A stretch of DNA of 63,945 nt, the filler included, from Parachlamydiales bacterium (GTDB taxonomy: Bacteria > Chlamydiota > Chlamydiia > Chlamydiales > Parachlamydiaceae): assembly GCA_020051075.1 (NCBI GenBank). It is 4 parts of 4 records of this genome, joined end to end, with 100 filler letters (N's around TTAATTAATTAA, not from the genome) between each part and the next. Parts side by side here need not be neighbours in the genome. Positions count along the whole stretch, not along the records: positions 52,371 to 61,240 come from JAGVJP010000021.1; positions 61,341 to 63,945 come from JAGVJP010000068.1; 2 more parts are not named here. The stretch is one strand, 5' to 3'. The position numbers were made by a program. This document shows positions 53,801 to 62,800 of this stretch, in pieces. The first letter of the stretch is position 1, and each line of letters begins with the position of its first letter.

Positions 53801-56800
53801 GGCTCCGACAGCAGTCATCAGTTACTTAGATCAAGACATCGCGTTGCTGCCGATGAGTGAAACTCCACTCCAATATTTTCAGAGCAAGTTTCACTTATCA
53901 GAGGAGGAATTGAGACGAGAACTGCACAAAGCAGCCATCGGCGGGTCAGAGCTTCTCAACCGTCCATTTGCAACCCTTAGCACAGGACAGAGAAAGCGCC
54001 TGATGATTCTTTCCCTCGTCCTGGAGAGGCCCAATGTTCTGTTGTTAGATGAGCCCACCAACCATCTGGATTTATTGACGTTAGAGGCGTTGGAAACAGC
54101 TATTTTGAGTTTTGAAGGGGGGGTCTTAGCTGTTTCCCACGACCAGACTTTCATCAATAAAATCGCCACAGAGGTGTTGGAATTCAGATGAGCTTTGTCT
54201 TCAGAATCTCAGCCCATTTATTTTTCTCCTCGTCAACCCACTGTTGATAGTCTCTGCGTTTGGCATCGCTCTTTGCTATTCCCAGATTTCCTGTAGCCCC
54301 TAGATGTTTTTTAGACAAAATGTTAGCAACAGGATCGGTTTCAGAAACATCCATTGGGTCTTTTGCCACTTGTTGATAAGCATCTCTAAATGGAATGCCT
54401 CCACTGGTCAATTTTAATACTTGATCAGTGGCGAATAGTTCAGGTGTAAATGCCTCTATACATGTTTTTTTATCGACCTGTATTTCAGAAAAGATCAGAG
54501 AAAAAACTTTTAGAGAGAGGGCTGTTGTATCCAATCCCTGCATCATTGGACGTTTAGTCTCTTGAAAATCTCTATTGTAGCCTGAAGGTAAAGCGCGTAT
54601 CAGTTCTAAAGTTTGAAACAGCAGTCCTTGAACAATGGCAGATTTGGCGCGGACGATTTCCAGCGGGCATGGATTTCGTTTTTGCGGCATTAAGCTGCTT
54701 CCTGGACAGAACTTTTCAGGCAATACTAAATACCCAAATTCAGGAGTGCTGAAAATAATCACATCTGTAGCTCCTTTGCTGAGGTCATTCATGATTTGAA
54801 CGAGAACATGCAAAACTGCAGCTTCAAATTTTCCTCTGCTATTATTTGCGTAGAGGACGTTATTTTGAACTGATTTAAATCCTAAGAGATCTGCACAATA
54901 TTGTCGATCAATGGGCAGAGAGACTCCATAGCTTGCTGCAGAGCCTAATGGACATTGATCAACAAGTTCATAAACTCCCTTTAATAAATGCATATCATCG
55001 AGGAGGGATTCTGCAAAGGCGCCAGCCCATAGCCCAATGGAAGAAGGCATGGCCCGTTGAAAATGGGTCCTTCCCGGGAAAGGGACTTCTTGGTGCAACT
55101 CTGCAAATTTGCAGAGAATATGGCAAGCACTTAAGACTTCTGCAGCAATCTCAAGGAGTTGATTTTTCATATAGAGACGCATGTCTAGAAGAACCTGGTC
55201 ATTTCTAGATCGTGCTGTATGAAGTTTTTTTCCAATATCGCCTAGCTTGCTCACTAATGCATTTTCAATTGCAGTGTGGACGTCTTCATCTTTTGCGTGA
55301 ATGACAAATTGACCCTCCTCATCTAATTGAATGATATGCCTTAATTGATTCACTAATTTCTGACATTCTTCAGCAGTTAAAACACCAATTTTTTCGAGCA
55401 TTTTTGCATGGGCAATGCTTCCTAAGCAGTCGTAAGTAATGAGGGCACGATCCAGCAAAGGATCGTCCCCAGTCATAAATGTTTCTACCAGATGATCTAA
55501 TGTATACCCCTTTTCCCATAATTTCATGATATCCCTCCTTGTGTGATCGTTTCTTGTCTTTTTGCAAGGATTTCACAAGGAAGCCCTCGTATCTTTGCGG
55601 CATGAGCGCACCATCTTTGATCAAATGAAGCGTTTTTTATTGATCGTATCTCAGGTGCAAAAAGAGAATAGGCAGACTCTCGATAGGTGATTGTGATATT
55701 GCCTTTGTATAATTTTGCTTTTACCTTTCCGCAGACCATTTGTTGTGTTTGGAAAATAAACGCATCTAAAGCTTGTTTCAGAGGGGAGTACCAGAGTCCA
55801 TGATAAACAAGGTAAGCCCATTGTGCATCGACACTTCTCTTGAATTGAATTTCATCTTTAGTCAAACATTGCTGTTCCAGATCACGGTGAAGCTTTAGAA
55901 TGACATGGGCTGCAGGAGCTTCATAGATTTCTCGGCTCTTAAGTTCCATGATGCCATCTTCAAACATGTCGATTAAACCGATCCCTTGTGAACCAGCGAT
56001 GTGATTCAGTTCGCTGATCATGGCATCGATAGGAAGTTCTTTGCCGTTAAGGCTGGTCGGCAGTCCCTGTGAAAACTCGAGTTCAATTTCTATCTCCTGA
56101 TCTACAGCTTTTTGTGGAGGAATTCTCCACATCCAGACGTCATCAGAGATAGGTTGATTCAGATCGATTGCTCCAGAGGCAATAGAACGACACCATAATG
56201 TCTTATCATCTCCACCAACGATTTGTTCTGTTATAGGCACCCCCCAATGCTGGCATAGCAGCTGTTCTTCGAGTCGAGTTAAGTTAAAGTCCCTCACTGG
56301 TACTAACACATCAAGTTCAGGAGCGAATAATTTAAACACATTGTGCATCCTGTATTGATCATTTCCTTTTCCAGTCGATCCTTCTAAGATCGCATCGCAA
56401 CCCAGTTTTTTTGCTTCTAGTGCAATGATTCTTGCGACCAGCTGGCGCGTCATCGAAGTTGACACGGGATAGCCATTGTAGTCAGCATTGGCTTGGATAG
56501 CTTTTGATAGCCATTCTTTTGAAAATTCCTCTTTAGCATCAATCATTATGGGTTTGATGCCCATTGCGACAGCTTTGTCATACACTTCTTTGATTTCTTC
56601 ATCCCCTTGACCGACATCAATCGTGATTGGAATGATTTCCTTAGCTTGATAGATGTGTCGAAGCAGAGGGATGGCAAGGGATGAATCTAGACCCCCCGAG
56701 AAGGCGACCGCAACTTTTTGTCCTTTTTGAATAGGTGTATGATTGATTTTTTCTAAAATTTCTAAAATTGTCATGATATTTTCTCCTTATATTTATATTG

Positions 56801-59800: not shown

Positions 59801-62800
59801 TGGGATTTCATTCCAAAAAATAAGGCTTAAAGTTGTGACGGCTTCTCCATGATAGGGAACCATTAAAATCTCTTTAAGTCTGCTGTGAGTGATCTCCATG
59901 CCACTCATGATCAGGTCAATTTTGCCTTGTTTGAGCGAAAGAATTTGCCCTTCAAATTCCATGTTGTTGATGACAAGTGTCTTCCCAAGCTTTTCAGCAA
60001 TTCGTGCGGCGACATCGATATCAAATCCGACGATTTTTCCATGGGCATCCATAAATTCAAACGGTGGATACTCACTTTGCAGGCCAACGACTAAGGTTTC
60101 ATGAGAAGGCTTTTCATGTTCTTGAAAAACTGTCATCCCTATGAACCCAAGAACTGCAGCAGTAGTGAGTAGTGCAATAAAATATTTACTTAACAATGCG
60201 GACATAAAAACTCCTAAAAAGGTTTGGACGCAAGGAATCGAGATCCTAAAACGTCTGTTGAAATGATTTGACTAGCAAAATAAGTTTTCAAAACGAGATG
60301 AAAAATGATTTATAGAGCAATAAATTCACGTTTAACAAAAACGATGAACTAAGCTCGTTAGCTAGTTACAGGTAAAAATAAAAAATGAAAAAAAAGGGTG
60401 GCTTAACGCCGACGGCGGAAAGAACGACGAAAAGAAGAATTGAACGAAGAAAGATAAGATGCAGAAGAGCTGCTCTTATTGGTATGTATCGGCTCTATCA
60501 TAGAGCTTGGACAGGGTGTAAAGTCCATAGTCGCAACCTACTTGGTTAATGCTAGTTAATAGAACATCACTAATTATATATTATAATATTCATTTCACTC
60601 AAGAAAAAAATTGGATCACTCTTACACGTTCTCTTCGATTCCCTTCTAACTTCCCAAAAACCATGCAAGATCAAAAAGCAATTGATGAATCTTGACTACA
60701 GCTATGTATGTCATGATGGGGATGAGGTTGCTGCAATACATAAGAGTAATTTTCTCATAATAATAACTAATCCAAATACATAATACCGCTATAAGACACG
60801 AAAGTGGAATCAAAAATCTTAAAAAAATGATTACATACCCTATAAAGACTGGTGGATAAAAAAAATATATGTTGAGAGCTTCAATGAGATGAGTAGGAAA
60901 TAGATATCCAAGCCAGATGACTGTAAAAATGAAGGCAATGCTAAAAGTAATCACTGTTTTTAAGAGGAATGGCATAATCTTCTTCCTGTTTTAACGGTTA
61001 ATTCGGGCAAGTCATCAAAGAGATCAATAGTTGTCCAAAATTCGTTTTCAGATTTTGACTCTCCTTCAAATTTATCACAATATGTGATTGTCGGCAATCC
61101 CAGAACCATTTCCCAACCATCCTCCCGCTTGAGCTTAGCTATCGCCCCCAACCAACTTTTATAAGCGCACAGGTTCTGATCAACATCCTTTGGCGGAAAA
61201 GCGAAAGGGGGCTTTCGCACTCCAAACGCTTCGCGTATCCNNNNNNNNNNNNNNNNNNNNNNNNNNNNNNNNNNNNNNNNNNNNTTAATTAATTAANNNN
61301 NNNNNNNNNNNNNNNNNNNNNNNNNNNNNNNNNNNNNNNNTGGAAACAGGGGTGGGGCCCTTCGCAAACCTGCCTGTCAATTTATTCTGGCACACAACCG
61401 ATCGAATGGCCATTTGACCTACATTCCCCTCGATATCGTGGACGCCGAGGCGACTCTACTCAGAATGGAAAAAGCAGCAACTCCAGACAGTCGTTTGGAC
61501 TTCCACCTCTTTTCTGGCGACACCCTCATCGCCTTCGATGGAGCAGGCACTCCATGCGTCATAAAAAATTCGCTTGTCGGCATCATCCAAAAAATCTATC
61601 GAGGAGAGTCGTCCCTCACTGCTCAAGAACTCGACCAGCTTCATTTATATTTCTCGCGTCGTCCTGATGAGAAAGCTGCGTTCGTCCACTTCCTCGAAGA
61701 GGTGCGTCGTGCATGGCCTCAAACGGCCAAAGTGTTGAATCAGATCACAGCAACGCCAATACAGCCAATACAAGCTGCAAGCTCATCCGGAGCCAGCTCC
61801 TCTTCTTCAAGTTGGTCAGGGGCCAGCTCATCCTCTTCAAGATTGATAGGATAGGCAAAATTGCAACTTTCCAGCATAGAATAACAGGATAGGCAAGATC
61901 GCTTCGCGGCAGGATCCTGTTTTTCTATGTTGAGAAGTTGTGATCTTGCCTACCCTGTTCCTGTCCTTTCGGATGTTGCAAATATTAGGTTTGTCCAACA
62001 AAATAGCGGAACATCTCTTTCGACCAATCTGCAATTTGTGCTGCGTCAGCCACAAAGGGTCTAAGATCTGCAAGCGCGCTCTCTAGATCAAGAGAATCGA
62101 TTTTATCGAACATCAGTTGCTCAAATTGTGCACGAGTGATGGGATCTTTCCCCTTCAAAAATCCTGAAGCTCTTAAGTGAATAGAAAATCTCTCAAGATC
62201 TAATTTTACCCCTTGTCGAATCAGCCATAACCAGTCGTACCAGTCTCGCCCTTTCACCCGTCCTTTCCATTCACGAAATAGAACTGCGTGCATTTTTCCA
62301 GCAAAAATATCTTCTAGGATGACAGTTTTAATCCCGAGATTGATCGGTGTGTTAAGAAAACGCACTTCAGTGCGGTAAGCTGGAGGTGGGTCGGTATCTA
62401 TTTCGAATTTAATTTTCAATTTAGTTTGTGGATGAAAACCTTTGACAAGATGCGGGGGTATTCCAATTTTCAAAAGTTCGCCAAAAGTATTTGTTTTGAT
62501 GAAGGCGGATTGGATAGGTGTTTGCCAAACTTTCACCCCCGTTTCAATCTCAACATTGAAACCATAGGCTTCCAATTCACTACGAATCGCAGTGTTAAAA
62601 AGGCTTAATGAAAAATCGTCATTTGGCTTTAGTAGAGTGAAATCTAAATCCTCAGAAAATCGATCTAGTCCATAGAGGATACGTAACGCTGTTCCACCAT
62701 AAAAAGCTGCATGCTCAAAAAAACGTGCACGCCATAAACCTACTAAGGCTAACTCTTGCAAAATTTCCTTAAGAGCCCGCTCATATTGTGGGCGAGTTTG

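Follow-up and report, generated by a model that had tools for sequence, protein, structure and literature searches.

The locus lies on contig C40 of the Parachlamydiales genome G000, past the N-gap at ~52272-52370; all coordinates are those of the window, the whole 63,945-nucleotide stretch of DNA that was analysed. Six intact, closely packed open reading frames occupy positions 54184-60205, all on the minus strand (Table 1), which bears out the operon of an amino-acid ABC transporter, argG, a second argG and argH described in the genome-wide survey's note. The start of argH overlaps the stop of the ArgG-like paralogue, P0001. The top NCBIfam match of the solute-binding protein is a Lys/Arg/Orn-binding protein (TIGR01096, 107.9 bits, below the cut-off of 256). 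In a promoter and terminator scan, 24 promoter-like sites were counted against 12.8 expected, and no terminator was found.

Table 1. Genes of the arginine operon, in window coordinates.
Feature	Position	Strand	Profile matches
Solute-binding protein, polar amino-acid ABC transporter; candidate ornithine/citrulline/arginine importer	59405..60205	-	PF00497
ABC transporter permease	58749..59405	-	PF00528; TIGR01726 above cut-off
ABC transporter ATPase	58027..58758	-	PF00005; GlnQ/ArtP-like, under those cut-offs
Canonical argininosuccinate synthase ArgG (P0002)	56793..58004	-	TIGR00032, 466.8 bits (cut-off 268.2)
ArgG-like paralogue (P0001)	55524..56774	-	PF00764 + PF20979
Argininosuccinate lyase ArgH (P0003)	54184..55527	-	TIGR00838, 342.5 bits (cut-off 279.5)

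P0001 and P0002 share only 33% identity. P0001 passes the ArgG profiles: PF00764 (149.6 bits), PF20979 (205.3 bits), TIGR00032 (347, cut-off 268.2) and PRK00509 (353, cut-off 334). At the same alignment columns, P0002 reads S-M-D-E-N...S-Y-E and P0001 G-D-D-K-T...S-I-A, confirming the earlier observation that the S-x-D-x-N...S-x-E segment is altered while the ATP motifs are kept. The extended motif GGDDKTxWCRSIAS was found in all 120 of the top 120 homologues.

The active site was compared, in human ASS1 numbering, between 73 copies of the paralogue family and 26 canonical ArgG copies. G188, A199 and G274 of P0001 align with human S180, E191 and R272. S180G and E191A occur in 73/73 family copies and in 0/26 canonical ones, and R272 is lost across the family (glycine in 72/73); H116E, P96Q, F128M, N184T, H187C and T17S are also fixed. 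The alpha-amino-acid site, the ATP loop and the aspartate loop are all retained: the 73 copies keep human Y87, R95, G117, K121, N123, D124, R127, R157, D182, S189, E270, Y282 and Y322. These include the citrulline residues Y87, N123, R127, S189, E270 and Y282. The PP-loop/ATP residues S12, G14, D16, T17, R95, G117 and D182 are likewise present in 73/73, except that T17 is a serine, as are R157 and the aspartate loop (T119 or S, K121, G122, N123, D124); T119, N123 and D124 correspond to T134, N138 and D139 in P0001. P0002 has every listed human active-site residue, S180, E191 and R272 included.

The ASS1 study PMC13289927 assigns T119, N123 and D124 to aspartate binding and names R272 an active-site residue; E191 is a citrulline-binding position and S180 an ATP/substrate-binding one. 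In the yeast screen of that work (S4 table), E191A and S180G reach 0.8% and 2.7% of wild-type growth, each being amorphic, R272G keeps 48% and T17S 74%, and H116D/Q, F128L/I/V and N184T are unimpaired; hence, H116E, F128M and N184T are little telling by themselves. Since S180G and E191A nearly abolish growth, it is very improbable that P0001 is an ordinary argininosuccinate synthase, and the earlier interpretation is supported to that extent. The loss of the acidic E191 would suit a carbamate, which is anionic, and a ureido product, which is neutral. K191 and R196, considered as new cationic carbamate residues, were dropped: canonical ArgG also has R196, and K191 is variable among the deeper members of the family.

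The AlphaFold model of P0001 has the right fold, with pLDDT < 50 at 135-140, 184-203 (the motif) and 277-282, so no pocket geometry was drawn from it. A homodimer is predicted with a score of 0.61, against 0.00 for the best control (contacts agreeing to at least 93%, pLDDT at least 87). Of the solved pairs, 20 of 30 come up to this mark, as does 1 of 23 single chains; P0001 may pass it through its likeness to solved synthases.

Structurally, P0001 shares the fold of ArgG/ASS1 (EC 6.3.4.5; TIGR00032; PDB 4u7j, 6xnq, 1j1z, 2nz2), the top Foldseek matches having a TM of ~0.7. Common to both are the PP-loop, the aspartate loop, the alpha-amino-acid-binding residues, the C-terminal oligomerisation helix and the link with ArgH, whereas the family is set apart by S180G, E191A, R272G and the other substitutions, its separate clade and its coexistence with canonical ArgG. 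A precedent for this fold in other adenylation chemistry is the ASS-like nitrile synthetase ArtA (PDB 9leh/9lei; PMC13060819). ArtA, however, is 22% identical to P0001 and performs an amide dehydration in a fungal natural-product pathway, with no involvement of arginine operons; P0001 is nearer to mycobacterial ArgG (E 1.5e-74) than to ArtA (E 5.5e-28). NCBIfam NF038212 (argG_rel) is likewise an ArgG exception family, and P0001 falls below it (197.5 bits, cut-off 425).

Of 300 order genomes with a completeness of 85% or more, 16 have an ArgG-like match. The paralogue occurs in 6 of 299 other order genomes at 77-83% identity, one of these being a contig-end fragment, and a second argG lies directly upstream in four of the six. 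The survey's figures (paralogue in 5 of 149 genomes, behind argG in four, 77-83% identity; ArgG in 20 of 559) are matched by these counts, but its picture of a chlamydial tandem duplicate is not upheld: in the tree, the family forms one tight ArgG-like clade of its own, extending over many bacterial phyla and archaea, and it is usually far from argG, lying directly behind it in 7 of 80 genome loci. Local tandem duplication was rejected on this separate clade and the low identity of the pair. Among 185,579 species representatives, 467 stretches matched the paralogue, the full motif being checked for part of them. A metagenome scan for deep-branching members brought up none beyond the main family. 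No description of the family or route was found in the literature searched, whose coverage leaves out most subscription journals; the family is widespread and uncharacterised. Source databases label it argininosuccinate synthase.

A second ArgG is present in 48 of 50 carrier genomes, the paralogue being alone in two; it is therefore no replacement for ArgG, and an isofunctional replacement was rejected on this ground. The pattern of ArgF, called as an ornithine-carbamoyltransferase-class match (TIGR00658, E<=1e-55), is different. ArgF was found in 1/5 carriers versus 18/19 non-carriers in the class of G036, 0/7 versus 71/74 in that of G014 and 0/10 versus 33/33 in that of G039; pooled over these three free-living bacterial classes, it is present in 1/22 carriers versus 122/126 non-carriers, a contrast whose Fisher p-values overstate the case because carriers inside one class are kin. 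On the single-contig chromosome of G036, the order is argB-argD-argG, with no gene between argD and argG, where L114 has argD-argF-argG. Ornithine synthesis is retained in carriers: the free-living ones keep argB, argD and argC, and argC was found in 5/5 tested ArgF-less carriers. In 26 of 50 carriers, the sole transcarbamylase match is at the PyrB level. Among the 50 carriers, drawn from many phyla, 13 have ArgF above the cut-off and so combine it with the paralogue; in three genomes (G224, G225, G019), the paralogue cluster also holds argF and carAB. The Altiarchaeota, where 8/14 carriers keep ArgF versus 25/28 non-carriers, count against an ArgF replacement. A catabolic explanation of the ArgF-positive carriers was rejected, as carbamate kinase was found in only 2/5 of those tested; none of the five had a convincing arginine deiminase.

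In G000 (99.92% complete), no transcarbamylase (PF02729), carbamoyl-phosphate synthetase (CarB) or carbamate kinase was found, its two amino-acid-kinase genes being an aspartokinase and a UMP kinase; transcarbamylase and CarB are also absent from G380 (99% complete). An argG with neither ArgF nor paralogue is common in host-associated lineages (4/7 chlamydial and 5/5 Dependentiae-phylum genomes tested), which also counts against an ArgF replacement. G471 (98% complete) has the operon of the window with the paralogue missing, so the paralogue is optional in chlamydiae.

The lyase is the usual neighbour. ArgH adjoins the paralogue in 51 of 80 genome loci and is found in 63 of 80 metagenome loci. 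P0003, the only ArgH detected by tblastn of G000, belongs in the ArgH tree to a low-scoring type that is the usual companion of the paralogue. ArgH scores are 234-389 bits in 20/20 bacterial carriers with a match versus >480 in 30/32 non-carriers, and the distinct ArgH takes the place of the lineage ArgH in three classes. This type also exists without the paralogue, and the ordinary type occurs in 5/54 paralogue-linked copies. The paralogue also belongs to arginine operons that contain argR, argJ/B/D/C or LysW-type genes, and it adjoins carAB in some archaeal loci; no recurrent glutaminase partner was seen among its neighbours.

As carriers mostly make arginine yet lack ArgF, the paralogue probably converts ornithine to citrulline, a step to which this genomic pattern points. 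If so, the use of aspartate and ArgH is likely in turn, though the more weakly grounded of the two. By analogy, ornithine would sit in the former citrulline site, held by its alpha-amino-acid end; CO2 or bicarbonate would form a carbamate on its delta-amine or on aspartate, to be adenylated by ATP at the PP-loop, and the second amine would displace AMP to leave N-(ornithinyl-delta-carbonyl)-aspartate, a ureido adduct. This adduct would be cleaved by ArgH into fumarate and citrulline, and canonical ArgG with the same ArgH would complete arginine. For P0001 as the founding example of an ArgG-fold family that performs the ArgF step from CO2 and aspartate with ArgH, free of carbamoyl phosphate, the case is about evenly balanced. 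We judge equally finely poised the full scenario, in which one ArgH acts twice, aspartate supplies the two new guanidino nitrogens, and the family spread over bacteria and archaea by gene transfer, displacing ArgF while masked as 'argininosuccinate synthase'.

The net role proposed is that of ArgF/ArgI with CarAB, which have no homology to P0001: it has ArgG domains only, without the OTCace domains PF02729/PF00185. ArgF requires carbamoyl phosphate (PMC6022934), whereas the paralogue would consume ATP (to AMP and PPi), CO2 and aspartate. Only analogies of chemistry, with unrelated folds and substrates, are offered by TsaC/Sua5, PurC/PurB and PurA/PurB. TsaC/Sua5 makes threonylcarbamoyl-AMP from an amine, bicarbonate and ATP by carbamate adenylation, leading to a ureido link; in the PurC/PurB and PurA/PurB pairs, aspartate is the nitrogen donor and is released by the fumarate lyase.

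The survey's note had offered a substrate other than citrulline or a partner subunit; the human ASS1 data favour its departure from ordinary synthases, but a partner subunit fails to explain the loss of argF, and both ornithine and the argF pattern had been missed. A non-catalytic or otherwise specialised partner (in an ArgG heteromer, as a regulator, or as a ligase for, e.g., homocitrulline), ArgF being lost because carriers import citrulline, is nonetheless a minority prospect. It would agree with the second ArgG of most carriers, the two-subunit active site of ASS (PMC13289927), the ArgF-less argG-argH operons with a transporter but no paralogue, and the carriers that have ArgF. Retention of all ATP- and aspartate-site residues speaks against it, as do the predicted homodimer, the usual position beside argH far from argG, and the argB/argD/argC of free-living carriers, needless for arginine in a citrulline importer. 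That P0001 is a divergent but ordinary isozyme has a minimal chance: its scores above TIGR00032 and PRK00509 and its database name stand against two substitutions each amorphic in ASS1, the rarity of carriers without a second ArgG, and an ArgF loss left unexplained.

Two other chemistries should be weighed against the CO2/aspartate route. Free ammonia might attack the adenylated ornithine carbamate and so yield citrulline at once, again without carbamoyl phosphate, with ArgH a mere operon neighbour. Ammonia-using PP-loop ligases are well known (NAD synthetase, the archaeal arginine synthetase ArcE), and this reading fits all the ArgF data equally well and the loss of R272. It is doubtful, given the conserved aspartate loop and R157, the growth left to R272G, the distinct ArgH that travels with the paralogue and the missing glutaminase partner. 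Joining ornithine to N-carbamoyl-aspartate from PyrB, as a preformed ureido donor, would yield argininosuccinate in a single step that circumvents ArgF as well as ArgG; this mirrors the ArgG reaction and accords with the carriers having only PyrB-level matches and with the archaeal carAB loci. Its chance is slight, as nearly all carriers retain ArgG, PyrB and CarB are absent from G000 and G380, and an identical guanidinium product should favour retention of E191.

To our knowledge, citrulline and arginine synthesis are taken to have carbamoyl phosphate as their obligatory carbamoyl donor. If real, a route from CO2 and aspartate via the ArgG paralogue would alter this rule, extend the ASS fold by a new reaction, correct the metabolic models of several hundred genomes that now show an argF gap and two argG, and allow ammonia- and CarAB-independent citrulline and arginine production in engineered strains.

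A fused paralogue was not found among 79 longer homologues (E<=1e-40), all at most 38% identical, which is weak evidence. The paralogue matched 113 plasmid records, every one at <60% identity, and its ESM Atlas matches fell solely in clusters named argininosuccinate synthase.

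The argG-like gene behind argG in the window's operon belongs to a real, conserved and widespread group of ArgG-like proteins that is misannotated, the database name of its members being argininosuccinate synthase. Gene content makes it rather probable that this family stands in for ornithine carbamoyltransferase (ArgF) in the step from ornithine to citrulline; if true, this is a new pathway, carried by a variant of a known enzyme kind. The operon consists of six intact open reading frames with intergenic gaps of at most 22 bases. The product of the second argG-like gene, P0001, passes TIGR00032 (score 347, cut-off 268.2) and fails two defining ArgG residues as well as the argG_rel cut-off. 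The genome-wide survey's note had described its changed motif, relative to canonical argG, correctly. The occurrence that it reported in other chlamydiae also held: among 300 sampled genomes of the order, 16 have an ArgG-like match, and, apart from the window's own genome, 6 of the remaining 299 contain the paralogue at 77-83% identity, in 4 cases immediately after a second argG.

Coordinates of the operon, its surroundings in the window and features at compared loci
Feature	Position	Strand	Remarks
Operon (solute-binding protein, permease, ATPase, argG, argG-like, argH, in this order)	60205 to 54184	-	contig C40 of the window's genome, G000
argG (P0002)	56793-58004	-	403 aa
second argG-like gene (P0001)	55524-56774	-	416 aa
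argH (P0003)	54184-55527	-	
ABC-F protein	52602-54191	+	convergent with argH, 8-base overlap; NF000355 (ABC-F of the ribosomal-protection-like type) score 413 bits, cut-off 380
Run of N and short linker	~52272-52370		joins two contigs
748-aa ORF	49670-51916	-	low-complexity serine/alanine stretch; other contig than the operon
AbiEi/AbiEii-like type IV toxin-antitoxin pair	61985-63525	-	PF13338 (weak), PF08843
Degenerate ArgG homologue, G002	L145:8838-10046		
Degenerate ArgG homologue, G005	L146:8339-9505		
Divergent ORF beside the paralogue	L037:4632-5285		

P0001 is not a local duplicate: it is only 33% identical to the adjacent canonical ArgG, P0002, and its family forms a clade apart from the canonical ArgG found in the same carriers. 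In a quick IQ-TREE analysis of 91 proteins, with the careful search incomplete, all 35 rows of the family fall in a single clade (SH-aLRT 99), whose branch has a length of 0.75 changes per column and which excludes the canonical copies. Bacterial and archaeal rows are intermixed within this clade, which suggests gene transfer. Each of the 120 best homologues of P0001 is at least 66% identical to it, and all carry GGDDKTxWCRSIAS and EGx[TS]GKGNDQ; the named sources among them include Planctomycetes, Armatimonadota, Actinobacteria, Verrucomicrobia and Candidatus Protochlamydia phocaeensis (WP_068469362.1). Among species-representative genomes, a scan found 467 stretches coding for a relative, and the record titles of the best 80 of these name Chlamydiae, Planctomycetota, deltaproteobacteria, Bacillota, Anaerolineales, Dependentiae, Altiarchaeota and Woesearchaeota. 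After clustering at 50%, only two full-length representatives exceed 600 bits, and three deeper members retain GGDDxTxWCxSxxSG. Four deeper-branching proteins of ~40% identity (P0251, P0256, P0257, P0261) keep GGDDxTxWCxS and the EG of the aspartate loop. Two genomes hold two full paralogue copies each on separate contigs (G025, L035 and L040; G033, L049 and L059), by duplication or bin contamination.

Of the 78 distinct genomes behind the 80 paralogue loci, 50 were searched. A second ArgG-family gene is present in 48 (two as partial matches), with the canonical motif in all 26 second copies examined. Only 13 have an ornithine carbamoyltransferase above the TIGR00658 cut-off; a weak, PyrB-level transcarbamylase match is all that 26 others have, and 11 have none. 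For lineage controls, ArgF was counted at a TIGR00658 match of E<=1e-55 in the classes of G036 (24 genomes with a completeness of 90% or more), G014 (81, 92% or more) and G039 (43, 90% or more). ArgF occurs in 1/5 carriers vs. 18/19 non-carriers in the first class, 0/7 vs. 71/74 in the second and 0/10 vs. 33/33 in the third (five of the 33 under the curated cut-off). Pooled, this is 1/22 vs. 122/126, with ArgF in 111/113 non-carriers that have an ArgG match. The p-values (0.002, 3e-8 and 5e-10) overstate the significance, because the centre genomes were picked as carriers and kin are not independent; the pattern recurs across three unrelated classes. On the single-contig chromosome of G036, argB, argD and argG follow each other with no argF between argD and argG, the sole transcarbamylase match is weak and adjoins carAB, and the paralogue lies elsewhere, beside argH. 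The order argB-argD-argG is likewise found in G047 and G020, and ArgC in all five ArgF-less carriers tested. Two Woesearchaeota loci (L012 and L020, from G010 and G015, which are flagged unpublished and counted within the 50) read paralogue-argJ-argB-argD-argC-argG, without argF. Paralogue, argH and argG are consecutive in 13 related metagenome loci, the annotated ones having argR in between and LysW-type genes upstream; within the bounds of the loci themselves, argF is absent from all 80 metagenome loci.

Other observations speak against a replacement. The 13 carriers mentioned possess ArgF and the paralogue together, possibly as redundant routes; in Altiarchaeota, ArgF is present in 8/14 carriers vs. 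25/28 non-carriers (p 0.04), and G224, G225 and G019 have argF and carAB within the paralogue's own cluster. For host-associated lineages, the lack of ArgF carries no information. Seven chlamydial genomes with argG and no paralogue have argF beside argG in three cases (one a contig-end fragment) and none in four, and no ArgF was found in the five Dependentiae-phylum genomes tested, which likewise have argG and no paralogue. One genome, G471, has the window's operon minus the paralogue and probably salvages citrulline; therefore, the chlamydial case is insufficient alone, and the argument for a stand-in for ArgF rests on the free-living classes. A further chlamydial transporter-argG-argH operon without the paralogue (L222, G491) seems to be disrupted by frameshifts in the permease, ATPase and argG, through decay or sequencing error.

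The window's genome (99.92% complete, 5.7% contamination) was searched for the PF02729 domain, CarB and carbamate kinase, and none was found; tblastn gave no argB, argC or argJ. Neither transcarbamylase nor CarB was found in G380 (99% complete). CarB is missing in 11 of 15 carriers tested, which were picked largely for transcarbamylase absence and have known completeness in these two cases. If the paralogue does the ArgF step in such genomes, neither carbamoyl phosphate nor carbamoyl-aspartate of the cell's own making can be its substrate.

For the active site, human ASS1 numbering was transferred via a P0002-2nz2 alignment, and 73 family copies, recovered from the 80 loci, were aligned with 26 canonical ones. 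PMC13289927 lists Y87, N123, R127, S189, E191, E270 and Y282 for citrulline, T119, N123 and D124 for aspartate, and S180, D182, R95 and G117 among the ATP residues. Of those listed there, the family keeps all save E191 and S180, replaced by A and G, respectively, in 73/73 copies. R272 is G in 72/73, and T17S, P96Q, H116E, F128M, N184T and H187C are further fixed changes. In table S4 of the same source, the relative growth of human ASS1 variants is 0.008 for E191A, 0.027 for S180G and 0.48 for R272G. Since the first two are at amorphic level and the other listed residues are kept, ordinary synthase activity seems unlikely, and ATP use and the binding of an alpha-amino acid and aspartate look intact. 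The invariance of C195 and E131 of P0001 is not accounted for by the proposal. A homodimer of P0001 is predicted (score 0.61, best control 0.00), a result that could pass through likeness to solved synthases.

The proposal takes up the canonical ArgG step, in which the ureido oxygen of citrulline is adenylated and AMP then displaced by aspartate. The paralogue would perform the same chemistry one step earlier, on a carbamate from CO2 and either the delta-amine of ornithine or aspartate, and the resulting ureido-linked ornithine-aspartate adduct would be split by ArgH into citrulline and fumarate. Loss of the acidic E191, which probably contacts the ureido nitrogens of citrulline in particular, would suit a negatively charged carbamate and an uncharged product. 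In the window's operon, imported ornithine would reach arginine by three enzymes. Precedents for the chemistry are the carbamoyl-AMP of TsaC and the cleavage of an amide-type succinyl adduct by PurB. The full aspartate/ArgH mechanism has about an even chance of being right.

The gene argH adjoins the paralogue in 51 of the 80 genome loci, lies inside 55 of them and is present in 63 of 80 metagenome loci; every other neighbour family occurs in at most 11. Most carriers have a single ArgH. In the three bacterial classes, TIGR00838 scores are 234-389 bits in all 20 carriers with a match (one more has none) vs. above 480 bits in 30/32 non-carriers, and 49 of 54 paralogue-linked ArgH cluster away from 29 lineage-typical ones. 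The linked proteins share changes close to conserved motifs. At sites that are elsewhere conserved, G20, Y200, V224, C287 and T324 of P0003, the window's ArgH, are fixed in the linked type (L001-L080), vs. S, A, S, D and D in the 29. A distinct ArgH would fit a lyase obliged to accept two adducts. Co-transfer of adjacent genes explains it too, and the same type occurs without the paralogue in G071, G222, G226 and G471; most Altiarchaeota carriers have an ordinary ArgH.

No description of the family or the route was found in the literature searched, subscription journals and bioRxiv supplements lying outside it, and an earlier description is possible. PMC6022934 gives alternative acceptors of transcarbamylases, every one with carbamoyl phosphate as donor, and PMC13060819 describes ArtA, an ASS-like enzyme running another reaction. 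Two chlamydial carriers have a third, degenerate ArgG homologue (L145 and L146, 46% and 40% identical to P0002) with eroded PP-loop and GKGND loop, possibly a non-catalytic paralogue; that of L145 still passes TIGR00032. Next to the paralogue in eight archaeal loci (L037, L045, L047, L053, L079, L026 and others) lies a divergent ORF of 210-230 aa with no NCBIfam match at 1e-10, a candidate regulator.
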